Part shown: positions 3,287-39,956 of the stretch, one piece after another
How positions within the stretch are numbered: position 1 is the first letter of the stretch
Layout: every line of letters starts with the position of its first letter
Source: an uncultured virus (IMG/VR IMGVR_UViG_3300032229_000206)
Taxonomy: Duplodnaviria; Heunggongvirae; Uroviricota; Caudoviricetes
Direction: 5' to 3' (one strand)
Virus record (IMG/VR): IMGVR_UViG_3300032229_000206
DNA length: 64,000 nt
Position numbers and translations under genes: made by a program
Notes under the pieces: model-generated
Told to the model about the DNA's origin: nothing
The model's input: only the letters and a program-made list of their open reading frames with translations
Databases searched by the model: none

Positions 3287-3549
3287 TAGCAATCCCATTT
3301 TCTACGCGCTTTGTTTAAACGACTGTTAGGGTCTTTTGCTGCCTTAGGAAAATCTTTTGCTTGTCCAGCAGAACGTGCACAGTATGACTTACGTCGTGCT
3401 GCAGACTTAGGGGATTTCTTTGCTTGTTCTTTACTTACAGGCGGTTTAAGGTTGTGACCTTCTTTTTTAGCTGAAGCACGGCCCTTTGCGTTTAGTCCGC
3501 CTTCTTTGTTCTGTCCCTCTTTACGTTGCCAAGCTGGAGTCTTTGCCAT
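3286..3549 (-). CDS. Small basic phage protein (DUF6321-like)
   Basis: PAWQRKEG...GGLNAKGRAS...RRKSYCAR...DPNSRLNKARRKWDC is a widespread phage motif. Confidence 0.65.
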   Translation of the reverse strand: MAKTPAWQRKEGQNKEGGLNAKGRASAKKEGHNLKPPVSKEQAKKSPKSAARRKSYCARSAGQAKDFPKAAKDPNSRLNKARRKWDC

Positions 3550-4021
3550 TAGTATCCCTCTGGTTTCCTTGAATCTTTATTTCTTTTAAACGCTGCCATG
3601 GAGACCACATTCGGTGCGATTGCTGAATCTGTACCTGAGTAGTGTGCATTCTGTACATTGTTCTCTGTGTCAGATAAGTTCTGGTCAAAGAATGCGTGAC
3701 GACGATTCTCTCCTCCGCCACGATTGCGAATTCCGCGATGGGCTGGATGGTTAGGTCCTGGTGTTGTCATATCGTCCATAATGAAAGTATCTCCTATTTT
3801 GCTTTTATAGTAAGGACATACGAGCTATAAGCAACTAAGAGTAAATCAATCAATTGTCCTGATTTTTCACTATGTTTCTCGATGAAATGGGCTTTCCATG
3901 CAATCGCATCGAACCTAGAGGAGCCACATCCGTTAGAAATATCCTGAAATACAACGTAGGCAAATTTAGCCACACGACCATCAAAGTCCTGGGCTTCCTC
4001 TAGATAATCTATAAAACTCAC
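3549..4021 (-). CDS. Two hypothetical proteins (3549-3779; 3794-4021, weakly YozE-like)
   Basis: ORF track; the second has a leaderless -10 CATGAT 6 nt before its GTG. Confidence 0.5.
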
Positions 4022-4399
4022 AGACGTATCATGACAGAAAGGCTACTGCCTAAACGGGTGAATCTAAAATTTCATCAACGGCATCATCAATCGTCCTACC
4101 GCCATGTTCGGCTGCACAGTTACCGCAGTTCTTGCACATCTTCTATTTTTCGGACTTCCACTGGAAAGTCATACTTACGGATTTTAATAGGATGGAGCTT
4201 TCCGCCAACCCGCATCACGGAGCTACCAGCTCGGCGCTTCTTCCGCTTCGATGGGCTATTCGCACTTTTGTACATATCACCAGCCTACCACAGGCTACTG
4301 CCTCCTCCACTATATGCTACAGGTGTGCCTGGTACCTGGTGGCCTACTCGCCAGTAACTTGGTTTAAGGGTGGGGGGGAGAGCAGAGGGCATGAGTGCC

Positions 4400-4453
4400 T
4401 GTGGATAACTAAGTAAACAGCCTGTTGCATGGGGTAGGGCTATCGCATATGGT
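4400..4453 (+). promoter_or_regulatory. Module promoter 1: DnaA box pair + -35 TTGCAT / -10 TATGGT
   Basis: TGTGGATAA 4400-4408 (reverse complement of TTATCCACA), CTA, AGTAAACAG; -35 at 4425, 17-nt spacer, -10 at 4448. Confidence 0.75.
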
Positions 4454-4501
4454 TATCTCACTAGGTAATCAGACGGGTTACCTACCTAACGGGGAGTAAA
4501 T

Positions 4502-4923
4502 ATGAAGCGCAACTACCATTCAGTAATGGAAATCCGTATTCCTGAAAACGCAAAACTAGAGGACGTATATCTTTACACAGGATACGGACACCAATCAGGC
4601 GAAGGTGTGGACACCCATATCAGTATCGCCCTTGAATCTAGCGTGGCTAATAACCTACGCGACGAGCGAGCATGGAATAAGTATAAGTTCCAACTATCAC
4701 TAGACCAAGCGCGGGCGCTAGTCGAGCACCTAACCACAGCACTAAACACCGAAGCACCTGAGGAAGGCAAGGTTGCGTGGGTAATGATTGACGGCAAACT
4801 AGAAGCATTAGTAGCATGAAGTGCTTCGACTGTGACGGCACTATGACAGTGCTAGCAGAAGGAACTCGCGGAACCAGTTGGGTCTGCAATAAGTGTGAAC
4901 ATATCTCTATAGTAAGTAAGTAG
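4502..4923 (+). CDS. Hypothetical protein (4502-4819) plus 35-aa Zn-ribbon ORF (4816-4923)
   Basis: SD GGGGAG; second ORF MKCFDC...WVCNKC overlaps by ATGA. Confidence 0.65.
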
Positions 4924-4926
4924 GAC

Positions 4927-4961
4927 AGAGGCTGGGACTTCCCCCCCAGCCTCTTTACTTT
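4927..4961 (+). terminator. Intrinsic terminator
   Basis: AGAGGCTGGG/CCCAGCCTCT stem followed by a T-rich tail. Confidence 0.75.
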
Positions 4962-5054
4962 ACTCCCTTAGACGGCATTGGGTTAGGCATTCAACACAAA
5001 CAATATAGAACGGCATAGGGACTGGCAAAAGAACCCCAAGAACATAAGAGAGCC

Positions 5055-5108
5055 TGTGGATAACTAGGTTAACGGGCTGTTGCTTCTAATAGGGCTCTGC
5101 TATAAGTT
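5055..5108 (+). promoter_or_regulatory. Module promoter 2: DnaA box pair + TTGCTT / TAAGTT
   Basis: TGTGGATAA 5055-5063, CTA, GGTTAACGG; -35 at 5080, -10 at 5103. Confidence 0.7.
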
Positions 5109-5154
5109 TATACCAGTGAGCAAGGGGCTCACTAAATGACGGAAGGGCAACAAA

Positions 5155-5775
5155 ATGTGTTCAATATGTGGAACTAAGGAAAATATCGTGTTTAGTGGCG
5201 TAGACGCGTTTCTCCTAGAATGTATGGATAGAATCGAAAAAATCTGCTATCCATGCGCTAACGAGGAAAAGGTGAAGGTAAATGCATAATGAAATTATCT
5301 TCTACAACGGATTTAATCTCCTTGTTGACATCATTATCGGCGCAACAGTATTTTTCTTCACAGCCCGTTTCTACTGGTCTAAAGGTTACAGTGAGGGTTA
5401 CGCAGACTGTCAAGACCATGCAGAACAAGCAGGGGAAAGTTACTACAATAACTACCGAGAAAGTGACGCGCTATGAAACTAAATGTTAATCAAAAGGAAG
5501 CCATGGAGCGCATCGCAAATCGCGAGCCATTCGAGGCTTCAAGCCTAAGCGGTAAGTTTATGAACTACACACCTAGCGCAGGGCGCCTAGGTGATGAATA
5601 TAATAAGCTTATTGCAGACTTCAAGACTGGCGCCTATGTAGTCTTCTCATACGCTACGCCTATCGCATGGTTTGGCGCAAATGGTTGGTATGTAGTAGAA
5701 CAAAAGTTCTCCTCTACTACAAGCAAGACACAGACTTATGTGCGACGTGCGATTGCTGAAAGGCAAGCCGCATAG
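5155..5775 (+). CDS. Three coupled small ORFs: CxxC protein (5155-5289), membrane protein (5282-5476), conserved actinophage-type hypothetical (5473-5775)
   Basis: MCSICG...CYPC; hydrophobic LLVDIIIGATVFFF; YVVFSYATPIAW...FSSTTSKTQ motif. Confidence 0.65.
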
Positions 5776-5787
5776 AAACCCCCTAAG

Positions 5788-5823
5788 CAAGAAGCCCCCG
5801 TGCCGTCACACGGGGGCTTCTTG
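5788..5823 (+). terminator. Intrinsic terminator
   Basis: 15-bp perfect stem CAAGAAGCCCCCGTG/CACGGGGGCTTCTTG. Confidence 0.8.
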
Positions 5824-5901
5824 TTTGTGTTGGGGCGTGTGGGTGTGTATGTATGTATGGCTTTAAAGCTTCTTTATATATACACACGCCCCAACACAAA
5901 C
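5823..5901. repeat. Hairpin element A (19-bp perfect arms)
   Basis: GTTTGTGTTGGGGCGTGTG 5823-5841 / CACACGCCCCAACACAAAC 5883-5901. Confidence 0.95.
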
Positions 5902-5907
5902 TCTGCC

Positions 5908-5961
5908 TGTGGATAACTACATGAACGAGATGGAATAAGAATTGGAATAATTGGTTATAGT
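5908..5961 (+). promoter_or_regulatory. Module promoter 3: DnaA box pair + -10 TATAGT
   Basis: TGTGGATAA 5908-5916, CTA, CATGAACGA; -10 at 5956. Confidence 0.7.
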
Positions 5962-6073
5962 TACTACATGAGCAACACCGCTCATATTAGATAGATAGGA
6001 GACACACCATGACGAGATTCGTCGGACTCCATATCAGGGAGACACACTAACTATGCAAGAGGGGGGTGATAAT

Positions 6074-6475
6074 ATGCAATTTACACGCAAAAACGCAATT
6101 CTGTGTCAGCGTGACACAGTACCAAATCCAATGCGCACAGGCACTTTCTTTAGCAACATGGTGCAACTAACATGGCTCGAAGAAGACAACAATATCCTTG
6201 TCTCATTCGGTTGCCTACAATGTGGCGAACAGACTCTAAGTCGTCCACAAATGTCAATCCATGTCGGGACACACAATCCCGACAATGCTAAGCCTAAGGT
6301 ACGCGGTAAGTATAAGACCAAATCAGCCAAGAAGGCTGACGCGGTTACTACTGTTAGTAAGATGATTGACGACCTTACAGCAGAACGCGACCTATACAAG
6401 GCGCAAGCCCGCAAGTATCAAAAGCAACTTCAGGCGCTACGCGACCTGTTCAAAATTGACGATAATCTCGTCTAA
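6074..6475 (+). CDS. C2H2-like Zn-finger / coiled-coil hypothetical protein
   Basis: CLQC...HVGTH followed by a C-terminal coiled coil; SD GGGGGTG before 6074. Confidence 0.6.
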   Translation: MQFTRKNAILCQRDTVPNPMRTGTFFSNMVQLTWLEEDNNILVSFGCLQCGEQTLSRPQMSIHVGTHNPDNAKPKVRGKYKTKSAKKADAVTTVSKMIDDLTAERDLYKAQARKYQKQLQALRDLFKIDDNLV

Positions 6476-6505
6476 GGGTTTTACACCCCCCGTGTAAAGG
6501 CAACG

Positions 6506-6533
6506 AGCCCCCGCAGAGATGCGGGGGCTTTTT
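6506..6533 (+). terminator. Intrinsic terminator
   Basis: AGCCCCCGCA-GAGA-TGCGGGGGCT + TTTT. Confidence 0.85.
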
Positions 6534-6622
6534 GTTTGTGTTGGGCTTGTTGTTAATGGTTGATGTGTGTGTGAATAGCTTTCCATCTTTTATTAACTAC
6601 TAGCAACAAGCCCAACACAAAC
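6534..6622. repeat. Hairpin element B (19-bp perfect arms, extended by G-T pairs)
   Basis: GTTTGTGTTGGGCTTGTTG 6534-6552 / CAACAAGCCCAACACAAAC 6604-6622. Confidence 0.95.
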
Positions 6623-6635
6623 AACCAGGGCGCCC

Positions 6636-6701
6636 TGTGGATAACTAGGTAAACAAATAGAGATAGCCTTATTGCATGAGAGCGAGAGATAAGCCTAAGA
6701 T
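6636..6701 (+). promoter_or_regulatory. Module promoter 4: DnaA box pair + TTGCAT / TAAGAT
   Basis: TGTGGATAA 6636-6644, CTA, GGTAAACAA; -35 at 6672, -10 at 6696. Confidence 0.7.
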
Positions 6702-6748
6702 AAGCACACGCGAGACCGTCTCGCGCTATTTACCGAAGGGGGACTCTC

Positions 6749-7756
6749 GTGGCTCATGCGCTCGAGGTTCAAAATGGTGAAGTAGCCTTTGCTCTACGCG
6801 GTGCACCCGCGTGGCATGGGTTGGCTAACCGCACTTTCGGCATTGACGAGCATGTCACAACCGCTGACATGCTAGAAAGTGCCAAATTGGCTGGCTGGGG
6901 TGTAGACCTCGAGCCTGTCCAATATCCGAGCGATTATCGCTCATCATCTGACCTATTCATGGTCACACGCACCAATCCATTCGACGCTGGCAAGGATGTC
7001 CTTGCGGTCGTTGGTAAGCGTTACCGCGTATTCCAAAATGAGGATTTATTCGCGTTCGGGGATAACATCCTCGACGGCGGTGCCTCATGGGAATCTGCTG
7101 GCTCAATCAAGGATGGCAAGGTTGTCTTTGGCTCCCTAGTTGTCCCTCGTGAGTTCATCCTCGACCCACAAGGTGCGAACGATAAGACTACGACTTACCT
7201 CTTGGTCTCATCTTCACATGACGGGTCTGCAAGTGTTACCGCGTCAATCACGCCTGTGCGTGTTGTCTGCCAAAACACTCTCAACATGGCGTTGCGTGGC
7301 GTTAAGCAATCTTTCAAGTTGCGCCACACTCTCAAGGCTGGCGAGCGCACTGCTGAGGCTCGTCGCGTATTGGGACTCACTTTCAATCACATGGACACTT
7401 TCGAGACTCTCGCTCGTGACCTGTTCCAGACCTCAATGGACGCCAAGGGTTGGGATACTCTCGTGAACGCGGTTTATCCTAAGCCTGACGCACAATCAGC
7501 GCCTCAGTCACTCACCAAGTGGCAAGCCAAGCGCGACCTACTGGATGATATTTATTTCCAGTCTCCTACCCAGACCAACATCAAGGGTAATTACTGGGGA
7601 GCGCTAAACGCTCTCACTGAGCGCCTAGATTATTTCCGCTCATCACGCACCGCTAACGGCGAGGCTTTAATCGGTGCTGCTGCTGGTTTCGACCCTACTG
7701 TGAACGCTGAGAAGGCTCGTATCCTACGCGCCGTCCGCGAACTCGCTAGCGTCTAA
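6749..7756 (+). CDS. DUF932 / TIGR03299-type phage-plasmid protein
   Basis: MAHALE...PAWHGL, YRVFQN, ESAGSIKDGK, SSHDGS, TPVRVVCQNTL motifs. Confidence 0.85.
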   Translation: MAHALEVQNGEVAFALRGAPAWHGLANRTFGIDEHVTTADMLESAKLAGWGVDLEPVQYPSDYRSSSDLFMVTRTNPFDAGKDVLAVVGKRYRVFQNEDLFAFGDNILDGGASWESAGSIKDGKVVFGSLVVPREFILDPQGANDKTTTYLLVSSSHDGSASVTASITPVRVVCQNTLNMALRGVKQSFKLRHTLKAGERTAEARRVLGLTFNHMDTFETLARDLFQTSMDAKGWDTLVNAVYPKPDAQSAPQSLTKWQAKRDLLDDIYFQSPTQTNIKGNYWGALNALTERLDYFRSSRTANGEALIGAAAGFDPTVNAEKARILRAVRELASV

Positions 7757-7766
7757 CAAGCCTAGC

Positions 7767-7800
7767 AATCAGCCCCTAGCCAATCGGCTAGGGGCTGATT
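7767..7800 (+). terminator. Intrinsic terminator
   Basis: AATCAGCCCCTAGCC/GGCTAGGGGCTGATT 15-bp stem. Confidence 0.8.
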
Positions 7801-7801
7801 T

Positions 7802-7892
7802 GTTTGTGCTGGGGCTATATGGCTAGTAGTTAATACTCAGGGAAAGCTTATTCTCTCAAAATAGCCAGTAACCATATAGCCCCAGCACAAAC
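7802..7892. repeat. Hairpin element C (21-bp perfect arms, compensatory C-G variant)
   Basis: GTTTGTGCTGGGGCTATATGG 7802-7822 / CCATATAGCCCCAGCACAAAC 7872-7892. Confidence 0.95.
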
Positions 7893-7899
7893 ATTTGCC

Positions 7900-7954
7900 T
7901 GTGGATAAGTAAGTGAACTCGGTCTAGTAAGAGAATTAAAAGTGTGATTATACT
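7900..7954 (+). promoter_or_regulatory. Module promoter 5: DnaA box pair + -10 TATACT
   Basis: TGTGGATAA 7900-7908, GTA, AGTGAACTC; -10 at 7949. Confidence 0.7.
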
Positions 7955-8000
7955 TGGGGGCTCGCACCAAGCGAGAGAACTACTACCAAAGGGGTATCAC

Positions 8001-8480
8001 ATGGGTCTAGATATGTATCTAAAGGCAACAACTTACATCAACAAGATTGACTACAACGCACAAGGCGATAGCGACGCTTGGGTTACTATGGAACAATTTG
8101 ATAAGGTTGTTTCAGAGGCTGGCTTAGAAGCAGTCCACACCGACATCTATGGTGCAGAGGTTTCAGTTACCTGCGCCTACTGGCGCAAGGTCAATGCCGT
8201 TCATGGTTGGTTCGTACAGAACGTTCAGGGTGGCAACGACGATTGTGGTAACTACTACGTTCCTAAGGCTAAGTTAGAGGAACTACGTGAAGCATGCCGT
8301 CAGGCTATCTTCCACAAAAATCCGTTGTTAATCAAGCCTATGGAAGGGTTCTTCTTCGGTACTACAGATATTGACGAGTGGTACTGGAACGGGCTAAAAA
8401 GCACTATTAAACAGATTGACCGCGTACTTGCCTTGCCTAATATCGACGACTTGAGTTTCTACTATCAGTCGTCTTGGTAA
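8001..8480 (+). CDS. Conserved phage hypothetical protein (MGLDMYL...YWRK.N..HGWF family)
   Basis: Recurrent phage motifs MGLDMYL, YWRKVNAVHGWFV, GFFFG, FYYQSSW. Confidence 0.75.
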   Translation: MGLDMYLKATTYINKIDYNAQGDSDAWVTMEQFDKVVSEAGLEAVHTDIYGAEVSVTCAYWRKVNAVHGWFVQNVQGGNDDCGNYYVPKAKLEELREACRQAIFHKNPLLIKPMEGFFFGTTDIDEWYWNGLKSTIKQIDRVLALPNIDDLSFYYQSSW

Positions 8481-8490
8481 GACTATTAAG

Positions 8491-8517
8491 AAGCCCCGCA
8501 GAAATGCGGGGCTTTTT
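8491..8517 (+). terminator. Intrinsic terminator
   Basis: AAGCCCCGCA-GAAA-TGCGGGGCTT + TTT. Confidence 0.85.
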
Positions 8518-8597
8518 GTTTGTGCTGGGCTTGGGGATGGGTATATTTAAAAGTAGTATTAATGCATCTCTTATTTATACCCAAGCCCAGCACAAAC
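8518..8597. repeat. Hairpin element D (18-bp perfect arms)
   Basis: GTTTGTGCTGGGCTTGGG 8518-8535 / CCCAAGCCCAGCACAAAC 8580-8597. Confidence 0.95.
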
Positions 8598-8619
8598 ATT
8601 ACTCGCCAGTAACATAGCC

Positions 8620-8674
8620 TGTGGATAACCAGGTGAACAAGAGTTTGAGAGGTGTCTGTTAGATAGTCTAATAT
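8620..8674 (+). promoter_or_regulatory. Module promoter 6: DnaA box pair + TTGAGA / TAATAT
   Basis: TGTGGATAA 8620-8628, CCA, GGTGAACAA; -35 at 8645, -10 at 8669. Confidence 0.75.
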
Positions 8675-8719
8675 AAAGCCATGAGCACAAGGGGTGCTCA
8701 TATGAGAGAAAGAGCGGGT

Positions 8720-9202
8720 ATGTTCACACTCAACGACATCACCTACTATGAGGAAAGCGACATCGCTGACCGCATAGCAAGTGAGCGCAGTACCGCAAGC
8801 GAGTGGGCTATAAATAGCCTACGCGCTGATAATCGCCATGAAACCTTGGCGATATTCAAAGCCGAGGTATCGGCTGGCTCAATGACGGAAGAAGATGCCG
8901 TCGAACTGTTTAATAAGATTGCTACAGCCTGTGGCTGGGAGCATGCTGAGGAGTCCGACTTACGGACACGATTTCGCGCAGAGGTTAGCCTCTTGGGTGA
9001 AGTTGTACTTGAACTTGACGATATTGAGGCGGACGACGAAGACGACGCCAAGCAAAAAGTTCTAGATGATATTTCCTTCGATAATATCGAAGTTCGCGGT
9101 GACCTATCAGTCTTAGGTGATAGCGGTTCGTTCCGTGCGGGTACATGGGACCTAGATGATTTCCTAAATGATAACCTCGAAGTCGAGATATACGAGGCTT
9201 AG
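8720..9202 (+). CDS. Highly acidic hypothetical protein
   Basis: About 42 D/E in 160 aa by hand count; start moved downstream of the predicted transcription start. Confidence 0.65.
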   Translation: MFTLNDITYYEESDIADRIASERSTASEWAINSLRADNRHETLAIFKAEVSAGSMTEEDAVELFNKIATACGWEHAEESDLRTRFRAEVSLLGEVVLELDDIEADDEDDAKQKVLDDISFDNIEVRGDLSVLGDSGSFRAGTWDLDDFLNDNLEVEIYEA

Positions 9203-9219
9203 CAGATACCCCTGCTAGG

Positions 9220-9248
9220 AAGCCCCCGCCGCAAGGTGGGGGCTTTTT
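9220..9248 (+). terminator. Intrinsic terminator
   Basis: AAGCCCCCGCC-GCAA-GGTGGGGGCTT + TTT. Confidence 0.85.
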
Positions 9249-9260
9249 CATGCCGTAAAA

Positions 9261-9352
9261 GTTTGTGTTGGGGCTATTAGATGGCTATTTAAGCTTTTAT
9301 TGCTTTAATAGATTCATCTATTAAAGCGCCATCTAATAGCCCCAACACAAAC
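9261..9352. repeat. Hairpin element E (25-bp perfect arms, nested inner hairpin)
   Basis: GTTTGTGTTGGGGCTATTAGATGGC 9261-9285 / GCCATCTAATAGCCCCAACACAAAC 9328-9352; inner GCTTTAATAGAT/ATCTATTAAAGC 9302-9327. Confidence 0.95.
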
Positions 9353-9354
9353 CC

Positions 9355-9409
9355 TGTGGATAAGTAGATGAACAGCCCTCTGTGCAGATGAGAGATGAGA
9401 GATTAGTAT
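9355..9409 (+). promoter_or_regulatory. Module promoter 7: DnaA box pair + -10 TAGTAT
   Basis: TGTGGATAA 9355-9363, GTA, GATGAACAG; -10 at 9404. Confidence 0.7.
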
Positions 9410-9438
9410 TACGCCTGTTACTTAGTAAAGGAGATACT

Positions 9439-10575
9439 ATGAACAAGACAGAACGCAGAGAGCGTTTTACAGAACTAATGACGACAATAGAGTTATTAGG
9501 TAATCAGCATGACGAGAACTACGACCCTAAGTTCCCACGGGGGTCTTATGGTCTATCAGACGGCAACCTTAAAACCGCAGTAATGGCACAGGCTATGAGA
9601 GAAGATGATGAGTTCGTTGGTAACCTTATTAACGCGCTCGCCAACACAGGTCTAGGTGCATGCCAAGAAGCACACGAACGCGACGAACAACCAAGCGAGG
9701 ACGACCTATCTTGCGCCACACTAGCAGTTCATGTGGCATGGGCTAAGGGCGCGTTTATGCCAATGGCGTTCCTAATGGGCACTATCGCCAAGATGATAGA
9801 TGTCTTTGATATGGAAGTACCTGAGGACTTAACACTTATCCTTCGCAGTAACTCAGGTATGCAGGACAAGGCAAATATGTTTGACCCGATAGCACTATTA
9901 GATATGACGACGAAAGACTTGAAGCGTTATATCGAGGAAGGATTGTCAAATGGCAACTAAGGTTATTAACGGCAAGAAAATGGTAGAAGTACCATTCACA
10001 GTTACCTTCAATGTGTGCGTAGAGGAACACGAATACCTGAAGTATGTAACTAGCGGTATCGTAGATGGGGCTATGGCACAAGCAGGTAAGGAAACCCTAT
10101 TAGATAGTATTAAGCCCGTAATGGACAAGGCTAATGAAAATTGGTCTTATATGATGATTGAGGTGGCGTAATGCAGATTAAAGACATGATGACACCTGCT
10201 ATGTGTAAGAGCACTATCGGTGGGTGGATATGGTATTGCGATAGTTGCGATACCCACGGCAACGCCAATTCCTCAGATGAGGCAGAGCATATGGCTGAGG
10301 CTCATGCGCTGTACCACTCATGGGATGAGGATGTGGAGTACGACGAGGAGAAAGACCCTGACGGGGAGAACATAACCTCATATATGGAACTACCCTATGA
10401 AGAACGGGAGTTCTCACTCGCTAACTGGAGTATGGAGTGCCTACAAGCAACCTACCTTATTAGCGTAGATGACAACATTACCTACAACTATGGTGATGAC
10501 TATGAAGATAAGACTATTAGACCGATAGATTTAGAAGTAGCCAACGAGATTAAGAAACGGATGGGATTAGCATAA
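9439..10575 (+). CDS. Three acidic hypothetical proteins (9439-9960, 9950-10171, 10171-10575)
   Basis: SD AAGGAG before 9439; coupled overlaps; the third has CxxC...HxxxH. Confidence 0.7.
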
Positions 10576-11090
10576 TGGGTATGGATGTATATGGAAATAA
10601 CCCTATTAGTGAGAAGGGTGAGTATTTCCGCAACAATGTATGGTGGTGGCGACCTTTGTGGGATTTCTGCGAGGAGATTGCCCCTGAACTGACACACGGA
10701 GTCCAAGGTCATACCAACGACGGAGATGGTCTAGATGAGGAAGGCGCTAAGGCGCTCGCTAATATCCTCACAATAAGCCTATCAGAAGGCGTTGTAGATA
10801 CCTATGAGCAGAAGCGTAATGAGTATCTAGCAAGCCTACCTAAAGAGCCGTGCAAATACTGTGAGGCAACAGGTATCCGTACTGATAGCGTGGGCGTGGA
10901 GCACGGCATGGATGTACAAGTCTTATCAGATGCCGAGGCGAGCGCACTAGGTAGGACTATTGGATACTGTAATGGGTGTCAAGGCAAGGGAGAAACAGAT
11001 AGTTGGGAGACACACTATCCGTTTAGTAGGACTAATGTACAAGAGTTTGCCGAGTTTCTAGCAGATAGTGGTGGTTTTAAAATCTGCTAG
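10575..11090 (+). CDS. Conserved phage protein (MGMDVYG...YFRNNVWWWRPLW) with a DnaJ-like CxxCxxxG insert
   Basis: Motifs visible: CKYCEATG, CNGCQGKG, terminal FLADSGGFKIC. Confidence 0.7.
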   Translation: MGMDVYGNNPISEKGEYFRNNVWWWRPLWDFCEEIAPELTHGVQGHTNDGDGLDEEGAKALANILTISLSEGVVDTYEQKRNEYLASLPKEPCKYCEATGIRTDSVGVEHGMDVQVLSDAEASALGRTIGYCNGCQGKGETDSWETHYPFSRTNVQEFAEFLADSGGFKIC

Positions 11091-11127
11091 GATGTAGTAT
11101 CTCCGCCCCCTTCGGGGATATACCACC

Positions 11128-11160
11128 AAAGCCCTCTGCTAGGACTAGCAGAGGGCTTTT
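11128..11160 (+). terminator. Intrinsic terminator
   Basis: AAAGCCCTCTGCTAG/CTAGCAGAGGGCTTT stem. Confidence 0.8.
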
Positions 11161-11177
11161 ATCTGCCGCCAGCCTGG

Positions 11178-11323
11178 AATGTTTGTGTTGGCCCACCCAT
11201 CGCATAAATGTATTCAATTATACATTTATGCTAACCCACCCTTTTTGCCAGCCTTTTTATATTAAAAAGGCTGGATTCCTCTGTTGAGCAATAAGCCGTA
11301 GGCTATTGCTCAACACAAACATT
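11178..11323. repeat. Hairpin element F (13-bp ends enclosing three internal hairpins)
   Basis: AATGTTTGTGTTG 11178-11190 / CAACACAAACATT 11311-11323; inner GCATAAATGTAT/ATACATTTATGC, CCAGCCTTTTTA/TAAAAAGGCTGG, TGTTGAGCAATA/TATTGCTCAACA. Confidence 0.9.
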
Positions 11324-11330
11324 TGCCGCC

Positions 11331-11361
11331 TGTGGATAACTAGATGAACGAGAGTTTGACA
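11331..11361 (+). promoter_or_regulatory. Module promoter 8: DnaA box pair + TTGACA (no ORF follows)
   Basis: TGTGGATAA 11331-11339, CTA, GATGAACGA; TTGACA at 11356; poor -10. Confidence 0.6.
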
Positions 11362-11566
11362 AGCAAAGAGAGCCAATGATAAGAGAGTGAGAGAGCGCGT
11401 CTAATAGGCTTATTTAGCCGTTAGGCTACTGCCACCGAGCCGAAGGGAGTGTGCAGGGATACGACCAGATGAGAGGCTATGGGATAGGCTTATTATGATG
11501 ATAGGTGGCGGTGGTGGCGGTAGAGAGGTTGTTCATAGGTTGTTCAGGGTAAAGAGAGGGAGAGGT

Positions 11567-11630
11567 TGTGGATAACTAGATGAACAGATTATAGAGCCGT
11601 CTTTAATATAGAGAGCCTATGCCCTAGTAT
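11567..11630 (+). promoter_or_regulatory. Module promoter 9: DnaA box pair + -10 TAGTAT
   Basis: TGTGGATAA 11567-11575, CTA, GATGAACAG; -10 at 11625. Confidence 0.7.
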
Positions 11631-11682
11631 CTGAGGGTGGGATACAGAAGGTATCTCCGTTACCGCACCGAAGGGTCACAAT

Positions 11683-13221
11683 ATGCTCGCACTACTCGTA
11701 GTGTCTGACACCGAACTAGAAGGAACACCTGCACAATCGCAGACTCTCCTAGTTGGTACAGATACAGAAGTTATCGGATACCACCGCGTATCCAATGGAC
11801 AGAAGGGGCGTGGTCAATCATGGCAACCCCTTACAGATAGCACTATCCCAACCGCCCCTATCACCAACGAGCCATGCGCCGTTGTCCTATCAGATAGGGA
11901 TATGGAGATGATGAAGTTAGGTCAAATTACCAATATCGGTATCAAAGCCCTATACGCCCTAGAAAGCGCACCTGCTATCCACGACGGCAACCCTCACAAT
12001 GAGGTAGTAGATAGTCTTATTACACGCCTAGAGTCAGGCGACCAATCCCTAACTAACCTTATTACCGACAAGCGCAGAACGACGGGTGTATCTATTAAGC
12101 CTATCGCGAAGGCAGAGGAAGTAACACAGGTCATGGAAGTATCCGTCGTACCTACTAAGGTTACTAACTACACCGAACTATCTAATAACCTCGTTACACA
12201 AATGGTATCCGTACCCGACAAGAAGTGGGCTAAGGAATATATCAACCGCAAGGTCGTTAATAACCTTACCGACTTTGAGATTTACGACTACGCCAACGCT
12301 AACGACATGAATATCCTTATTGAGGGTCACGCAGGGTCAGGTAAGACTATGAGCGTACAAGCGTTCGCTTCCGCTAGAGGCATGCGCTACTTCAATGTCG
12401 CGTGTCATATCGGGCTAGAAGCCTCACACCTAATCGGTCGTTGGATACCAACGGCAGACGGGCACTTCCGTTGGCAAGACGGCGCAGTTACAGAAATTGT
12501 CCGTAATGGTGGCGTACTCCTATTTAACGAGATTAACTTTGCACCTGAACGCTTCCTCACCTTTATCTTTAGCCTATTAGATTATCGCCGTGAGATACAG
12601 TTAATGGAAAATGGCGGAGAAGTTATCAAGGCTCACCCTGACCTACTAATCGTGGCAGACATGAACCCTGACTATCGTGGCACTCGCCCACTTAATCAAG
12701 CACTCGCCGACCGCTTCGCAGTACGCCTATCATTCCCATACGATAAGCCTATTGAGCAGAAGTTACTCGGTAACAAAGCCCTAGTAGATATGGCTAACCA
12801 ACTCCGTGATGAGTTTAATAAGGGTACGCTATTGACTCCCGTATCTACTAGAGCGTTGGTCGCGTTCGTAAAGCATGCTAAGCAGTTTGGCATGGACTTC
12901 GCTACTTACACCTATGTCAATAGTTTTGAGGGTGATGAGGAACGCTCGGCAGTACGCCTAGTAATCAACACCCACCGCGACAATATCGCAGAGGAACTAG
13001 GACTAGAAGTTACTAATAAGGCTAGTGTGTTTGGTAACTCTAACTTAGAACAGGCTATCGCTAATACAGAAATAGGCGCACAGGTCGCTTCATACGAAGC
13101 CGTAGTCGCACCTAGCGACCCTGACATTACCGCTAGTCAGGTCATGGAAGTAGAACTTAATAACATTATCAACGGCAACAACCCGAACCTCGTTGCTAAC
13201 CTTATTGTAGAGGGTAACTAA
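11683..13221 (+). CDS. MoxR/CbbQ/CobS-like AAA+ ATPase
   Basis: Walker A GHAGSGKT, Walker B LLFNE, MNPDYRGTRPLNQALADRF. Confidence 0.9.
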   Translation: MLALLVVSDTELEGTPAQSQTLLVGTDTEVIGYHRVSNGQKGRGQSWQPLTDSTIPTAPITNEPCAVVLSDRDMEMMKLGQITNIGIKALYALESAPAIHDGNPHNEVVDSLITRLESGDQSLTNLITDKRRTTGVSIKPIAKAEEVTQVMEVSVVPTKVTNYTELSNNLVTQMVSVPDKKWAKEYINRKVVNNLTDFEIYDYANANDMNILIEGHAGSGKTMSVQAFASARGMRYFNVACHIGLEASHLIGRWIPTADGHFRWQDGAVTEIVRNGGVLLFNEINFAPERFLTFIFSLLDYRREIQLMENGGEVIKAHPDLLIVADMNPDYRGTRPLNQALADRFAVRLSFPYDKPIEQKLLGNKALVDMANQLRDEFNKGTLLTPVSTRALVAFVKHAKQFGMDFATYTYVNSFEGDEERSAVRLVINTHRDNIAEELGLEVTNKASVFGNSNLEQAIANTEIGAQVASYEAVVAPSDPDITASQVMEVELNNIINGNNPNLVANLIVEGN

Positions 13222-13222
13222 T

Positions 13223-15094
13223 ATGCCTAAGGCTAATCAGAACGACATATTAGATAACCTTATTAACGAACTTCGTTACGGGGGAGAATATAACTCCCGT
13301 GATGAGGAAGGTAATTGGGTTACAGATTACGACGCTATTGAGGAACGACAGGAAGCCGTCGCAAAGCATATCGAAAAGTTACAATCGGTAGGCTTCGTGT
13401 ATAGCAAGGCAGATAGGATTATTACAGGCGACCCCGTAGAAGTACGGGTTGAGGATAACCCTGAAATGGATACTACCGCCTACAACGACGGCAAGAATAT
13501 CGTGTTCAACGCACACCTATTAGAGGACATAACCGACGAAAGTATCGTGAGCCTTCACGGGTTTAACTACCATGAAGTCGCGCATATCCTATGGACTCCG
13601 CGTGGTGGTAGTGAGTTTGGTACGACTATCAGACAGGAGAAGTTAGGCAGAGCCTTCAATATCCTAGAGGATAGCCGTATCGAACGACTACTAATCGCAA
13701 AGTATCCTGCAACCGCACCCTTCCTAGAAGCGTCTAGCCTAGAGTATATTCTTAAAGGCGACCCTAGTGAGTGGTGCGATTACTTCCCACTATTTACAGG
13801 TCGTAAGTATTTAGATATAGATTTACGACAAGAACTCGCAGATAGGTTTATTAAGAAGCATGGAGTAGCAACCGCACAGTTGCTATCCGTAATCGTGCAT
13901 GAATACCGCACCCTAGTATTCCCACGCGACTATGCGAGAGCGTTAGATATTCTCCGACAGTTTGCAGATATAGTCGGTAAAGACGACCAACCGACTAGCA
14001 ATATCCCACAAGACGGGGGCGGTCATGGCGACCGCAAGCCTATGGATAAGGGTCGCATGGAAGGTAACAAGGAACAACAGAAACTACAAGATAAGGCTAG
14101 TAGTCAGGAAAGCGGTAGTAACGCAGGTAATGAGAAGTTAGATGAACCTGCCGATAACAGTAACTCCAACGATACAACAGGCTTATCAGATGAGCAGAGC
14201 GCAGAGGATAAGGCACTTAAAGATAAGATTAACAATGACCTTACCGACCTACTAAAGCGTGAGGAAGTAAAGCGAGATACACAGGAAGTCCGTAAGGCTA
14301 TCCGTGATAACTCTAACTCTCATAGTGCTATTAAGCAGGGCGCATACACTAATAGCGTTGTGAAGCCACAGTTACAGGCTAACGCTCGTAACTTCGCCGT
14401 GGCTATGGAACGCCTACGGATAGATAACGACCCACAATGGGAGTTAGAAGTAGAAAGCGGTCGCTTAAATATAGGTCGCGCTATGAAGGCAGATATTAAC
14501 GACATTAACCGCCTATTCGATAGGTGGAGTGAAGGTAATAGCAACAACGACATAGAAGCGGTAGTCCTAGTAGATACTAGCGGTAGCATGGGTTGGCAGA
14601 TACAACGCACTATGGAAAGCGCATGGACTATCAAGCGCGGTATTGAACGCATTAACGGGCGTGTATCCGTCTATAAGTTTAACCATGACTCTCGCCTAGT
14701 TTATAGTGGAGATGAGAAGGCTAAGCCTACGGAGTACCGCTTCGTAAATAGTAGCGGTGGCACTAACCCATACAAAGCCCTATTAGAAGCGCAACGCATA
14801 CTTCGCACTAGCCGTAAAGGTATCAAGATACTATTTATCGTTACCGACGGCTCATGGGATATGACAGAGCAGAACGATAGGGTTATTAAAGATTTATCTA
14901 GCGAAGGCGTTATGACTAGCGTAGCCTTCCTCGGTGACTTTGAGTGGATAAAGGCTAACGACCATGAACGCTACAAGGCGTATATGAAAGAAGTACGCCA
15001 CGAAGCACAGGTAATGCGTGTAGTATCAGAGCCACGCGACCTAGTAGATATTGCTAAAGACCTAGTTAAGTTGGTAATGGGTAAGAAGCACTAA
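13223..15094 (+). CDS. VWA-domain protein with N-terminal HExxH metallopeptidase-like domain (CobT-like partner)
   Basis: YHEVAH, FNILEDSRIE, MIDAS DTSGSM, VTDG. Confidence 0.85.
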   Translation: MPKANQNDILDNLINELRYGGEYNSRDEEGNWVTDYDAIEERQEAVAKHIEKLQSVGFVYSKADRIITGDPVEVRVEDNPEMDTTAYNDGKNIVFNAHLLEDITDESIVSLHGFNYHEVAHILWTPRGGSEFGTTIRQEKLGRAFNILEDSRIERLLIAKYPATAPFLEASSLEYILKGDPSEWCDYFPLFTGRKYLDIDLRQELADRFIKKHGVATAQLLSVIVHEYRTLVFPRDYARALDILRQFADIVGKDDQPTSNIPQDGGGHGDRKPMDKGRMEGNKEQQKLQDKASSQESGSNAGNEKLDEPADNSNSNDTTGLSDEQSAEDKALKDKINNDLTDLLKREEVKRDTQEVRKAIRDNSNSHSAIKQGAYTNSVVKPQLQANARNFAVAMERLRIDNDPQWELEVESGRLNIGRAMKADINDINRLFDRWSEGNSNNDIEAVVLVDTSGSMGWQIQRTMESAWTIKRGIERINGRVSVYKFNHDSRLVYSGDEKAKPTEYRFVNSSGGTNPYKALLEAQRILRTSRKGIKILFIVTDGSWDMTEQNDRVIKDLSSEGVMTSVAFLGDFEWIKANDHERYKAYMKEVRHEAQVMRVVSEPRDLVDIAKDLVKLVMGKKH

Positions 15095-15167
15095 GGTAGG
15101 GAAGTAGCAATCGAACAGGCGTTCGCACCTACCGCGACCGCCCACCACAAACAGAAGGGATATAACT

Positions 15168-17420
15168 ATGGAATACCAAGACCCAAATATAGATTACAAA
15201 GAACTACTAAAAGAAGTATTAACCCGATTAAAGGCGCATGAGGAAGTCGAAGGCGACGAGTACGGGGTCAATGCGTGTGATACCGCGCTAGATTATTTAT
15301 TCTACCTAGAGGACAGAAGCAAATGAACCCACAATACCTAACCCTATTTAATAAATATATAAATGGTGATGAGAAGGCAATAAGCCTATTAGATACCGCA
15401 CTAGATGTAGCACTAGACACCGCATACCTACGCGGTAGCCATGACGAGCGCATAGATAACCTTGACTACCTTGACGAGCGCATGGTGCTAGACGAGATGA
15501 ACGACAGTATCTATGACCTAATGGTGGAGTTAAATATAGAAGCACCTATCGTGGGCTACCTAAGCCTATTAGAAACAGAAAGCGAGCAAGCGTAATGGAA
15601 TACACAAAGGAAAACCTATACTCTATGGTAAATGCGGTAGAGGAAGCACGATACGCAGTAACCGACCCTAAGTTAAAGGGTCGGCTAGGAGATGTAGCAG
15701 ACCTATTAGATAGCCTTATTGTAGAAGGCGTTATTGAGCGAGAGGTAGAGGAATATGCCTAAGTACGAAGTAAGAGTTGTAGCAGATATATCAACCGCGT
15801 GGGATACAGATACAAGCGCGGAAGCCCTAGCGTTAGCAGATGAGTGGGTGCGACAGGAATATGGCGACCTTATCCACAAGGCTAACCTTATTGTAAAGGA
15901 GATAGCATGAGCGTAACAGAGTTATTAGATGAGTTAGATAGGCTTATTGAAGGACACCCGTTAGCATGCGGTTGTGCTAATTGTCTTACTAGGGATACAA
16001 TTACAGAAGTTATGTATCAAAGAAACCTAAGAACGGGAGTGTCTTACCATGTCTGATGAGTTTATCGGATACGACCATGAAGGTCACGAAGTATATGAAG
16101 GCGAAATTATAGAGAACTTAGACGACGACCTAGACGACGCGTTAGAGGAAGTTAGCGACTATTGGAAGTTGGTCGCGTACCACTTACAGAATAATCTTAA
16201 CCCACCCGTACCCCTTGCTATGGTAGAAACATGTATTGAGGCTATCGAACACGCCAATAAAGAGGAGTGGGATAGCCTTATTACACTACCCGAAGGAATT
16301 AAATATAAAGGAGAGAGTGAAGCCACAGTAGAAACTATTGTTGATGGTCACTACCTACAAGATTTTATTACAACAGCAAGAGAAGTTGTTACAATTACCG
16401 ATAATGAAGGAACAGTAATTTACAAGGGTTATGGTACGGAATATAAATTAGAACCTCACTCCACTATTACAGATGAGAACCTAGAGGACTTCGGTATCGA
16501 GAAATGAGATGCGCCCGTTGTTTTATTGAGTATGATAACGGAGAGTTAATCGCACCCGAAGGCATGGATATTGAGCAAGCCGTAGCGGTTGGGTTAGCCT
16601 TTTGCGTGATGTGTATAGTACCGCAGGGTAGTCCTGCGTCTATTTGAGAGAGAGAGAGAGAGAGAATTATGTCCGAAGAAAGAGAGAATAAATGTGGCTG
16701 CGGGAATTGCAGTTGCGGAGAGAGTAACGAAGGATTAAAGATAGAAAAGAGAGTCGTTTCGGAAATGGACGGCGTTAGTTAGTTTGTGTTGGCGCACTAG
16801 ACAAGTTTGTTATATAGCAGTACCCTTTTCACGCCTACCCTAAGGAGAAATTAAATGGCTAAGAAAGTAAATGTAGTATTTGACGCTACGCTAAAGAAGA
16901 ACCCTGAGAAGGGTGGCGCATGGTTAGCCCGTGTTACCACCTATGATGAGGGCATTGACGAAGGTAATGTAATCGTATCAACCGCATGGTCTAACGCGAG
17001 CGCAGGTAAGCGTTGGATTAAAGAAATGGTTATTAAGATGACTACCAAGAAGTCTGTAAAGATGATTGCTGGTACTGACCTTGACGCTAAGGGTAAGCCT
17101 ATGGCGTTTGAGGGCAAAGTATTGTTTAAGAGAGAGATTTAATAGTTAAATGGCAACCTTTGGTTACTCGTTTGACCCTATCGTACCTGACCCAGAGTGG
17201 GGCAGACCTTCACCTGATATTCCAGATGAAGAAATTTATGATGATGATGAGTTAGAAGATGATGATTAAAGATATAAGAGTCCGTAACCCGTTTTATATT
17301 AAAGAGAGTAAGTTCGGGGATAGTTCTACTGTGCAAGTTCTATGCTTTCACTGTGGTAGCACTTACCGCACACACCCTAATAATCTAAGAGTTCCTAATT
17401 ACTGTAGTAACTGTAAGTAA
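15168..17420 (+). CDS. String of short, mostly acidic hypothetical ORFs (e.g. 15168-15326, 15323-15595, 16049-16507, 16855-17142 and several under 60 aa)
   Basis: ORF track plus own reading; coupled starts and SD sequences. Confidence 0.55.
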
Positions 17421-17523
17421 AATTTAATATAGGCGTCAAAGAGAGGCTTTTCTACTTTTCAACTCTCTAAGGCTATTCATGACCCACCCCTTCGGATAGA
17501 TAGACCTGCGCCTTCCGCAATAG

Positions 17524-17566
17524 AGAGAGCCCCTAGTTTTCGGGTAACTAGGGGCTCTCTACTTTT
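17524..17566. terminator. Terminator at the convergence of the + and - blocks
   Basis: AGAGAGCCCCTAGTT/AACTAGGGGCTCTCT 15-bp stem. Confidence 0.8.
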
Positions 17567-17574
17567 ATATTAGT

Positions 17575-19716: not shown

Positions 19717-21171
19717 TTACTTATCTTCGGTTAAATCCTTGATAATCTTTGTAGTTTCAGTCTCATTTAGACCGCCGTCTGGCAGTTCTTTTAGTGCCTG
19801 AGCCTTGTCTCCGAAGATGGAAGATAGCACACCTGAAGACCCTTGGCGCTCTACGGTCATGCGAATAAACTCACGTGAGTCGTCCAATTCTTTGGTGGTT
19901 TTTATAAGTTTGAATAGGCGGTCTATCTCTTGAGAAACGTTCGGGTCAGCGTATCCACCGTTCATTTCTTCAGCAAAACGCATAAAAGCAACGCGTTGCC
20001 CCTGCATTTCGATGATTGAGTTAATAAGACTCTTAAGTTGGTCTTTGGTCTTTACCTCGATTGGCAACTTAAAAGCACACACACTTTGGGGCTTGTAAGC
20101 AGGGCAGTTAGAGGCAATAAAGCATGTATCGCATGACCTAATTGTGGTTGCTTGGGATGAGATATGTGTGGTGTCTGAGATGACTCCATCAGCATCAACT
20201 TCGGTCTTTATCTCGTATCCGAAGACTGGTAAATTGCCCATTTCTTCTGGATTTCGTGGCATAAGTTTCCGCATCTGGATACCCTTATTATCAGCATTGG
20301 TTGGGGTCAGTTCCGCGTTATCTGACATGTTAGTTTCATCGTTATTATCATGATAAGAATCGCCCACTTTATTTATCCTAACCTCAAATTGTTCGTACGA
20401 CCATACTGCAAGACGACACACTTCCTGTGGGTCATCTTCAGCAATTTTATCTGCATCTATGCCAGCCTTCTCATACACGTGAGTGTAGCGTGAGCGAGCC
20501 TGCTCTTTCATACGCTTGGGGTAGCGCATAAGCCTAGTACCGTCCCAGACAATAGTTTCCCCGTGCATCATTGGCGATAGCCATGAGAGGGTGCTAGCGG
20601 TCTCAAAAGGCACAGAGCGTAGGTTGTCTGGTTTGGCACAGCCTAGCGCATGGAAGCGGTTTCCATTGCGCTTAGCCATAAGTCTTGTGACTGAAGCTAG
20701 ACGGGTCTCTACCTCGATTACATCGCCTGGTATGCCTATATCTAGGTACTTATCTCCCATGGATTGTAGGGTTTCTAACTTAGACTCTGGGTTCCAGACT
20801 GGCAAGAACTTACCTGGTGGCACCTGGGACCAAGCTGTGCGACGCTGCTCCTCCACGAAATCTGGGCTAACAAATGAAGAATTAATCTCAGCAAATATAG
20901 ATATGCGGTCTATATTCATGGCAATCATATGTTCGTAGGCAGCAGCAAACTCCTCGAGCTCTACCCTCGACAGGTTGATGTTCTTGGGTAACCCTGGGTA
21001 TACATAAATATAGGAATCCTTAGAAAAGTAGTTCTCTAATAGATATTCCTTGGTTTTAGGTAATCCGCGTTTTACAAGACCGTAGAAGCTCAGGCCCACG
21101 TGGTTAGCTGTGGTTGACTCTAGCAGTGTGCGGTTACTTGGAATCTCACATCCCAAATATACAATCCGCAT
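19717..21171 (-). CDS. Protein with a TGT/DpdA-like barrel signature and a C-terminal Cys4 domain
   Basis: FLPVW, RFHALGC...VPFETASTLSW resembles the HxLG...PFxSxDSxSW motif; CDTC...C...C. Confidence 0.45.
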   Translation of the reverse strand: MRIVYLGCEIPSNRTLLESTTANHVGLSFYGLVKRGLPKTKEYLLENYFSKDSYIYVYPGLPKNINLSRVELEEFAAAYEHMIAMNIDRISIFAEINSSFVSPDFVEEQRRTAWSQVPPGKFLPVWNPESKLETLQSMGDKYLDIGIPGDVIEVETRLASVTRLMAKRNGNRFHALGCAKPDNLRSVPFETASTLSWLSPMMHGETIVWDGTRLMRYPKRMKEQARSRYTHVYEKAGIDADKIAEDDPQEVCRLAVWSYEQFEVRINKVGDSYHDNNDETNMSDNAELTPTNADNKGIQMRKLMPRNPEEMGNLPVFGYEIKTEVDADGVISDTTHISSQATTIRSCDTCFIASNCPAYKPQSVCAFKLPIEVKTKDQLKSLINSIIEMQGQRVAFMRFAEEMNGGYADPNVSQEIDRLFKLIKTTKELDDSREFIRMTVERQGSSGVLSSIFGDKAQALKELPDGGLNETETTKIIKDLTEDK

Positions 21172-39841: not shown

Positions 39842-39884
39842 TGTATAAGTGTACACACCCAACGGGAGATGTTGGGTGTAAAAG

Positions 39885-39956
39885 CTCCCCACCAAGGACT
39901 CGAACCTCGACTCGCTGAACCAGAATCAGCTGTCCTGCCAATTAGACGAATGGGGA
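39885..39956 (-). tRNA. tRNA-Gln(CTG)
   Basis: TCCCCA..TGGGGA acceptor, GCTGA-TTCTGGT-TCAGC anticodon arm, GGTTCGAGTCC. Confidence 0.92.

Follow-up and report, generated by a model that had tools for sequence, protein, structure and literature searches.

Palindromic spacers with conserved ends and copy-specific paired arms separate the early-gene cassettes of an uncultured tailed phage

Background

The early regions of lytic phages show the fastest turnover of host-takeover and anti-defence genes, and the exchange of early genes without broken regulation is known mainly from the promoter-early stem-loop (PeSL) cassettes of T4-type phages. The stretch of 64,000 nucleotides analysed here (IMG/VR record IMGVR_UViG_3300032229_000206; hereafter the window) is part of an uncultured tailed double-stranded DNA phage with a contractile tail and a full genome of about 95 kb, whose early genes lie on the + strand and start at about position 4400. 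Six long palindromes, A to F, lie between these genes, with ends that are conserved and arms that differ from copy to copy. A previous sequence-only reading had described them as a family of hairpin elements and had listed several candidate roles; its observations are confirmed and its interpretation is partly supported. Beyond that description, each palindrome was found to be the middle part of a composite junction, in which an intrinsic terminator is followed by the palindrome and then by a box and a host-type promoter, and these junctions separate the early-gene cassettes. A literature search on intergenic palindromes or cruciforms between phage early genes returned no description of such elements and, on the basis of that search, the palindromic spacers are an undescribed kind of gene-cassette boundary. 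They are read here, tentatively and at somewhat less than an even chance, as hairpin- or cruciform-forming modules that act at the DNA level as crossover and insulation points.

Results

The six palindromes of the window

The palindromes are as follows.

5823..5901: spacer A, 79 bp, with a 19-bp perfect stem
6534..6622: spacer B, 89 bp, with a 19-bp perfect stem and a loop that is reverse-complementary to the C-type loop
7802..7892: spacer C, 91 bp, with a 21-bp perfect stem and the C-G variant at stem position 8
8518..8597: spacer D, 80 bp, with an 18-bp perfect stem and the C-G variant at stem position 8
9261..9352: spacer E, 92 bp, with a 25-bp perfect stem and an inner 11-bp hairpin adjoining the 3' arm
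11181..11320: long-type spacer F, 140 bp, with a 10-bp closing stem, three internal hairpins and two CCCACCC motifs

All six are present where the sequence-only reading had placed them, as are the nested hairpins that it had reported in E and F. The arms of A to E are copy-specific and yet perfectly complementary, forming Watson-Crick stems of 18-25 bp, and the T to C change of C and D is indeed paired with an A to G change in the opposite arm. The AAT and ATT flanks of F lengthen its closing stem by 3 bp to 13 bp, extending the element to 11178-11323. Spacers A to E are the top five inverted repeats among the 16 pairs detected window-wide and, when folded as single-stranded DNA, each strand of A to F surpasses all of 200 shuffles, with z values from -6.4 to -15.0. 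In a contig of the sequencing run X19, opposite strands are connected inside D (8535/8579) and beside it (8517/8666), probably through an assembler fold-back on the palindrome.

The conserved ends read GTTTGTGYTGG and CCARCACAAAC. The 10-mer GTTTGTGYTG occurs 14 times in the window against an expectation of 0.38 and a maximum of two in 100 shuffles; twelve of these occurrences are the paired ends of A to F and the other two, absent from the sequence-only reading, are lone half-sites, listed below.

4992-5001: lone right-end half-site CAACACAAAC, in the first early intergenic region
16782-16791: lone left-end half-site, overlapping the stop codon of a Cys-rich open reading frame (ORF) of 37 amino acids

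The second site closes a segment (16647-16791) that consists of a (GA)n run followed by the Cys-rich ORF (CGCGNCSCG). The first early cassette of the relatives likewise carries a lone right end, directly preceded on its 5' side by GGGGAGGGTGGGT, and 700-800 bp further on a lone left end followed by GCCCGCCCACCCC. Such flanking sites lie at 5805 and 6497 in locus L263 (G009), at 6513 and 7294 in L260 (G006) and at 6641 in L265 (G011, reverse strand); the two are complementary over about 23 nt (20/23) and bracket whole genes.

Pairing and covariation in the relatives

The relatives (G002-G013) were found by pattern scans of IMG/VR with the exact ends, and pairing was assessed by direct pair counts on 50 non-redundant elements from the window and 12 related IMG/VR records. 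The same elements, 76-143 bp in length, occur in at least 12 related records. Perfect stems measure 18-25 bp in 37 of the 50 copies and 10-12 bp in the remaining 13, with no intermediates; the short-stem copies are those of the F type and the weakly paired copies of the divergent record G008. The F type always stands ahead of the AAA-ATPase/VWA gene pair in the relatives and retains its three inner hairpins and two CCCACCC motifs.

At stem positions 1-18 of the 37 long-stem copies, all 666 of 666 pairs are Watson-Crick and none is G-T, while positions 13-18 each show three to four pair types; when partners were shuffled between copies, a mean of 44% and a maximum of 59% remained paired (1000 trials). 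Since the copies are related, these numbers overstate the count of independent events. In homologous elements of G002 and G003 the differences are matched across the stem (A to T with T to A, and T to G with A to C), and the 46 variable stem positions within the loop-sharing families are all Watson-Crick, 21 of them being of the transition type, 22 of the transversion type and three of multiple types. The ends stay invariant while the identity of the neighbouring DUF932 protein falls from 93% to 51%.

The sequence-only reading held that the structure and the 10-12 nt ends are under selection and that loss of arm complementarity at homologous loci, or a match to a known Rfam family, would count against it. 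Complementarity is kept at homologous loci of the relatives, by way of two-sided changes, and an Rfam scan of 3500-18000 gave 26 matches at E values up to 1, all below the gathering threshold (the best was mir-297, with 41.3 bits where 90 are required); all of them belong to generic long-hairpin models of the microRNA-precursor and leader kind and were rejected. The claim of selection is thus supported.

Organisation of the composite junctions

Terminators and a representative box are listed below.

5785..5826, + strand: intrinsic terminator before A, with a T-rich tail that reaches into the first bases of A
6505..6533, + strand: intrinsic terminator before B
7767..7801, + strand: intrinsic terminator before C
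8487..8518, + strand: intrinsic terminator before D
9220..9248, + strand: intrinsic terminator before E, with a gap of 12 nt to E
11128..11163, + strand: intrinsic terminator before F
5906..5926, + strand: conserved 21-nt box CCTGTGGATAAC-TAnnTGAAC after A, upstream of a host-type promoter

The palindrome mostly begins a few bases past the terminator, and its T/G-rich first bases lengthen the T-run of the latter. A stable hairpin (-10 kcal/mol or better) ends at most 30 nt upstream in 49 of the 50 elements and at most 8 nt upstream in 46. The palindrome itself was considered as an intrinsic terminator and rejected, as it ends in CACAAAC and is followed by the promoter box, with the true terminators lying just upstream.

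The 9-mer TGTGGATAA, core of the CCTGTGGATAAC box and a perfect DnaA-box 9-mer, is found within 40 nt downstream of 36 of the 50 elements, the gap between palindrome and box being 0-22 nt. Nine copies lie on the + strand between 4400 and 11575 (at 4400, 5055, 5908, 6636, 7900, 8620, 9355, 11331 and 11567); one more, the tenth, is on the - strand at 15870. In five of the nine copies the box is followed after 49-50 nt by the start of a -10-like hexamer; in two others the spacing is 38 and 61 nt, shorter or longer by a helical turn, and the remaining two have weaker -10 candidates only. A simple sigma-70 scan gave matches no commoner than in shuffles and the promoters were therefore judged by their phasing with the box, which is read as the upstream site of host-type early promoters. 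These promoters may be targets of host DnaA or may titrate it. The records G006 and G007 retain the palindromes with the adjoining box swapped for other motifs; palindrome and promoter box are therefore separate modules.

Several other motifs were seen near the promoters. A stretch of about 340 nt past F (11340-11682), flanked by two box copies, has no ORF of 40 amino acids or more; it holds repeats rich in GGTGG and may be the source of a small non-coding transcript. The loci L259 (G005), L261 (G007) and L262 (G008) each have one perfect parS-like 14-mer (GTTTCACGTGAAAC) in an early intergenic region, in two of these three between terminator and palindrome; none was found in the window. Promoter-proximal repeats are clade-specific: the clade of the window has TGAAC repeats (boxes such as 8630-8640), one sister clade has GTTCACC/GTTTACC every 11 nt (L295:6060-6110 and similar), presumably akin to actinobacterial PhoP boxes, and another has GTTATC/GTTACC pairs. 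The DnaA-box 9-mer and, in the relatives, the parS-like site and the 11-nt periodic GTTCACC repeats may bind host factors, suggesting that the early promoters of this lineage read host regulators.

Variation of the cassettes

Cassette maps drawn from clustered ORFs (clusters denoted c1, c8 and so on) over 13 records show an array that is syntenic but shuffled, with the elements at the cassette boundaries. The order in the window is c12, A, c13, B, DUF932, C, c20, D, c8, E, c1...c9, F and the AAA/VWA genes. DUF932 stands ahead of c13 in G005, G006 and G009 (swapped order), the c20 cassette and one element are absent from G010, and c8 and one element are absent from G009 and G006. G005 has c8 between two elements that share a loop and have different arms, each perfectly paired, and a homologue of c20 lies at another place in G007. 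Homology between the window and G010 breaks off at 7822, after 21 nt of C, and is regained at 8586, where 12 nt of D are left, and the genes that precede one and the same loop family vary from record to record. The breakpoints inside C and D, together with such loop families, show that the spacers recombine away from both flanks.

Strand symmetry and loops

The sequence-only reading had argued that the stems of A and B, which extend through G-T pairs, favour folding of the + strand, and had counted a structured RNA among the possible roles. This holds for A and B, with RNA energies of -43.4 kcal/mol on the + strand against -34.4 on the - strand for A (a difference of 9) and of -47.3 against -35.8 for B (a difference of 11.5). 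The family as a whole does not follow, as the RNA energies of the 50 elements favour the + strand in 21, the - strand in 21 and neither in eight after the orientation of five elements was corrected (22, 20 and eight before, with a mean difference of -0.5 kcal/mol), and as DNA the two strands fold equally well. The usual path of change in RNA stems is by way of G-U intermediates, a route towards which the stem changes here show no bias (22 transversion-type against 21 transition-type).

The loops behave likewise. The B-type loop matches the C-type loop only as the reverse complement, with alignment scores of 52 against 11 for the B of the window and the C of G011, and of 32 (reverse complement) against 12 (direct) for B and C inside the window; loops have therefore been flipped between the arms. 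They are richer in A+T (63%) than the arms (50%) or the regions overall (53%), and the tetramer AGCT occurs in 24 of 37 loops against about two expected from random windows (at most six in 500 draws). As AGCT is self-complementary, it survives loop inversion. Inverted-polarity copies, described below, add to this, and the observations point to a constraint that acts on both strands and weaken a role as structured RNA.

Because the elements sit behind strong terminators, little RNA should contain the palindromes. Public RNA libraries (X13, X20), a doubtful library (X19) and a DNA run (X3) were compared, as contigs, with 4300-12300; the RNA contigs of relatives sit inside genes and none was seen to bridge an element, such contigs showing no ends, strands or levels and lending no meaning to uncovered parts.

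Sister clades and variants of the ends

A profile built from five DUF932 proteins retrieved 323 related loci, the best 80 of which were examined for palindromes with arms of at least 14 bp and a loop of at least 20 nt. Twenty-six of these 80 loci hold 85 such palindromes, at least 44 of them with window-type ends; the other 54, mostly with a DUF932 identity below 60%, have none by this definition. Sister clades show the same layout of terminator, palindrome (arms of 26-28 bp) and promoter-proximal repeats, with related but different ends, namely TTGTTGAGTTGG, TTGTTACGTTGG, TTGTTAGGTTGG or TTGTTGGGTTGG, and TGTTTGGGT(C/T)GG. The pattern shared by the ends is TTGTT, two to three free bases and GTTGG. 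In four copies the polarity is inverted: they start with the A-rich end and close with the T-rich one, and a T-run follows the stem. Five hybrids combine two ends of different variants, with mismatched outermost bases and perfect inner arms. As the ends of the hybrids mismatch, the end motif is conserved in its own right, beyond pairing, and exchanges seem to occur between ends and arms.

Searches for copies elsewhere and for proteins acting on the elements

Among one genome each of 185,579 species, a search for both ends at a spacing of 45-75 nt gave only six unrelated single hits. A sensitive blastn search with 9180-9420 gave one 25-nt match, which lies in the terminator, outside the element. 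Among the nearest cultured phages, comparable palindromes were absent from the first 14 kb of the Streptomyces phage Jay2Jay, including its DUF932 gene, and from 19 kb around the AAA ATPase gene of the Gordonia phage Chidiebere.

ORFs of the window were scanned against PHROGs (21 and 58 ORFs) and Pfam (69 ORFs). No tyrosine or serine recombinase, integrase, transposase or HUH protein was found among the 90 ORFs of the window, and 65 of the 128 ORFs of the complete relative G005, those outside the shared region, likewise yielded no such recombinase, only a small HNH protein. The co-occurring HUH protein or tyrosine recombinase proposed for checking in the sequence-only reading was therefore found neither in the window nor in the rest of G005. 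No phage RNA polymerase family was seen in the same ORF scans of the window and G005. DUF932 was considered as a reader of the elements and rejected, as it has no solved relative at E < 0.1 and the parts of the literature at hand held nothing useful on it.

A REPIN- or MITE-like mobile element, one of the roles proposed earlier, does not agree with these results, given the six unrelated hits, the syntenic positions and the lack of a transposase in the scans; moreover, the arms differ between copies and the flanks carry no consistent direct repeats of the kind left as target-site duplications. No observation speaks for two further roles proposed earlier, a single-stranded promoter or priming signal like Frpo/ssi and a DNA-entry pause signal; the phage is of the tailed, double-stranded DNA kind.

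The phage and its likely host

The window encodes structural proteins (tail sheath, baseplate proteins), replication proteins (DNA polymerase I, a DnaB-like helicase, a DnaC-like loader and a primase), a ribonucleotide reductase, a UvsX-like recombinase, two Holliday-junction resolvases and two exonucleases. Auxiliary and tRNA genes are listed below.

19717-21171: queuine-tRNA-ribosyltransferase-like gene
28888-29406: Hsp20 gene
29939-30223: SpoVS-like gene
33405-33722: WhiB-family gene
39884-40110, - strand: three clustered tRNA genes (Gln-CTG, Gly-GCC, Asn-GTT)

The queuine-tRNA-ribosyltransferase-like protein possibly serves 7-deazaguanine modification of the DNA. No near relative was found by megablast of 4300-12300 among 50,697 deposited phage records; the IMG/VR record G001 (62 kb, completeness estimate 65%) is almost identical to the window, and relatives with complete genomes measure 95.5-98.0 kb. 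The best cultured matches of both polymerase and sheath are Streptomyces myophages, at about 40%. The DUF932 gene has 546 phage homologues, mostly in phages of Mycobacterium (217), Streptomyces (116), Arthrobacter (50), Gordonia (35) and Microbacterium (33). These matches, together with the WhiB-family gene, suggest that the host is probably an actinobacterium.

Discussion

The preferred reading and its difficulties

Among the roles listed earlier, a cruciform or single-stranded DNA substrate for recombination is the one favoured here. The recombination genes of the window that could take part are listed below.

27355-28563 and 32535-33392: exonucleases
31513-32076: RuvC-like resolvase
33698-34039: second resolvase
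34029-35090: UvsX-like recombinase

Once a junction is unwound, either by the negative supercoiling behind a polymerase at the adjoining promoter or by the passage of a replication fork, the palindrome would fold into hairpins on both strands and thus form a cruciform. The T/G-rich ends of 11-14 bp and the AGCT-containing loop motif would be the parts constrained in sequence, while the arms would need only to pair; the left end would in addition serve the upstream terminator as its U-tract. Together with the short conserved ends, the folded or four-way structure could then act as a preferred crossover point for the recombination enzymes of the phage, for which the UvsX-like recombinase, the two Holliday-junction resolvases and the nucleases of the window (SbcD/Mre11-like and RecB/Cas4-like) are proposed, and genes would stay uncut as cassettes are exchanged, gained or lost. 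In addition, the spacer would keep the terminator of one unit apart from the regulator sites of the next. Perfection of the arms may arise from the copying of one arm off the other, by template switching or conversion within the palindrome, combined with selection; quasipalindrome correction is a known process. Extrusion in vivo, the action of the enzymes, the copying of arms and the selective benefit are the parts of this scheme that we infer.

Several points weigh against this reading. Cruciform extrusion is kinetically hard with loops of 36-51 nt, and the pairing statistics are inflated by kinship among the 50 copies. For homologous shuffling, short conserved repeats would suffice by themselves, and recombination alone therefore leaves the need for a palindrome unexplained. 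In the comparison of the window with G011, some mosaic boundaries also coincide with gene ends that lack an element. Many loop families keep one orientation across the relatives, which could reflect either a strand-specific role or simple descent, and a duplex of 18-25 bp would also suit a nuclease specific for double-stranded RNA. Finally, no protein that reads the ends was found.

A bolder form of the hairpin- or cruciform-forming module, which we regard as improbable, is that the hairpins are extruded by the supercoiling that arises from early transcription and read by a phage or host protein through the stem base and the AGCT loop, so as to gate the promoter or to trigger a programmed break, with the outward G/T-rich ends steering the break to recombination-dependent replication and cassette exchange. 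If true, it would extend the principle of phage N4 to an actinobacterial phage that uses the host polymerase, and would amount to an integron-like cassette exchange without an integrase.

Alternative explanations

An RNA hairpin in read-through transcripts, with a duplex that is cut by an RNase III-type nuclease or blocks exonucleases and thereby uncouples the messages, is an unlikely alternative, comparable to the RNase III sites between the early genes of T7. The elements stand in the sense path directly past the terminators, their stems span about two helical turns, A and B fold much better as + strand RNA, and early genes of the relatives are present in the contigs of RNA libraries. The family, on the other hand, has no strand preference and includes inverted loops and inverted-polarity copies, the 666 stem cells contain no G-U pair and their changes no transition bias, and little RNA is expected behind canonical strong terminators; the conservation of the end sequences would also be left unexplained. 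A further alternative is that the inverted ends of 11-14 bp are paired sites for a DNA-binding protein of the phage or the host, acting for example in the shut-off or insulation of early promoters, the hairpin being incidental. The ends are conserved far deeper than the arms, lone half-sites persist at syntenic places, G008 keeps the ends with little inner pairing, and both the end variants of the sister clades and the hybrid ends, which keep the motif without pairing, fit such sites. We hold this to be quite improbable, more so than the RNA hairpin, because neither the perfect copy-specific arms of 18-25 bp in 37 of the 50 copies nor the nested hairpins are explained by it.

Folded single-strand sites of the integron kind, with crossover in the conserved ends by a putative recombinase, would account for conserved ends with variable paired arms, a length of 76-143 bp, one site per cassette, arrays that vary in content and order, and elements that stay intact on cassette gain, as with the two paralogous elements around c8 in G005. 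Such sites are very unlikely here, since the 90 window ORFs and the 65 ORFs of G005 yielded neither a tyrosine or serine recombinase nor a HUH protein or transposase, the cassettes have their own promoters, and the perfect stems have neither the unpaired spacer nor the extrahelical bases that the available text of PMC5027507 gives for attC. Least probable of all are replication signals, in which an A+T-rich centre beside a DnaA box would be an unwinding or priming site for DnaA, the DnaC-like loader, the DnaB-like helicase and the primase. Nine perfect DnaA-box 9-mers on one strand beside the elements, the A+T-rich loops, and a gene set with helicase, loader and primase and no recognised initiator among the ORFs scanned are in line with it; against it, G006 and G007 keep the elements with the DnaA boxes swapped for other motifs, the boxes are phased with promoters, and six to nine origins within 7 kb would be unusual.

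Comparison with known systems

The junctions described here are more elaborate than the PeSL cassettes, as a strictly paired, strand-symmetric palindrome is kept down to about 50% protein identity exactly where the cassettes differ. If it functions as DNA, phages would have, in a rare case outside N4, a DNA hairpin with a regulatory or recombinogenic role, and a simple sequence signature would be at hand for cassette boundaries in uncultured actinophages.

REP/REPIN, Correia and ERIC repeats are intergenic hairpin repeats that follow gene ends, are near-identical within a genome and are spread in host chromosomes, whereas the arms here differ completely, the positions are syntenic and the elements are absent from the bacterial genomes scanned. 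Hairpins of N4 have a stem of 5-7 bp and a loop of 3 nt, in contrast to the stems of 18-25 bp, loops of 36-51 nt and downstream host-type promoters of the present elements. The early promoters of N4 are, in the accessible part of PMC4496689, DNA hairpins that are extruded by supercoiling and used by an injected virion RNA polymerase; they are small, number three per genome and flank a GC-rich heptamer that is centred at -11. The likeness, as far as that source goes, lies in hairpins that front early genes and in conserved bases being read while other stem bases need only pair. A hairpin promoter of the N4 type was rejected for the present elements on account of their length of 76-143 bp, the box about 50 nt ahead of the -10 hexamer and the lack of an RNA polymerase family in the scans.

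The attC sites of integrons share with the palindromes short conserved ends, a low sequence similarity with retained folding, a similar length, and one site per cassette in arrays (PMC5027507, in the text available). In the same source attC is a hairpin that pairs imperfectly, with extrahelical bases and a central spacer left unpaired, and is read by IntI on one strand. The present palindromes differ in being perfect over 18-25 bp and without strand bias, in bordering cassettes with their own promoters, and in that no IntI or other integrase was found in the window or the rest of G005; an integron attC was rejected on these grounds.

The closest comparison is with the PeSLs of T4-type phages, terminator/promoter repeats between small early genes (PMC4122927, PMC2839356). 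According to the portions of these papers at hand, both systems consist of composite terminator/promoter units that recur among small early genes, in plastic regions where close relatives differ by ORFs gained, lost or replaced, and in both the motif varies by phage group. A further mark of PeSL-type cassettes is mini-circle excision through recombination of their units. The present junctions carry such a unit of terminator and early host-type promoter, with a terminator-like hairpin in 49 of the 50 elements and the box with its -10-like hexamers, and they are associated with ORF gain and loss in the cassette maps of the 13 records and with the breakpoints inside C and D. In PeSLs, again by those portions, the stem-loop is short and is the terminator itself, whereas here an additional palindrome of 76-143 bp is placed between terminator and promoter, with conserved ends, copy-specific paired arms and a loop motif of its own. 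The junctions of this phage thus resemble the PeSL idea with an added structured spacer.

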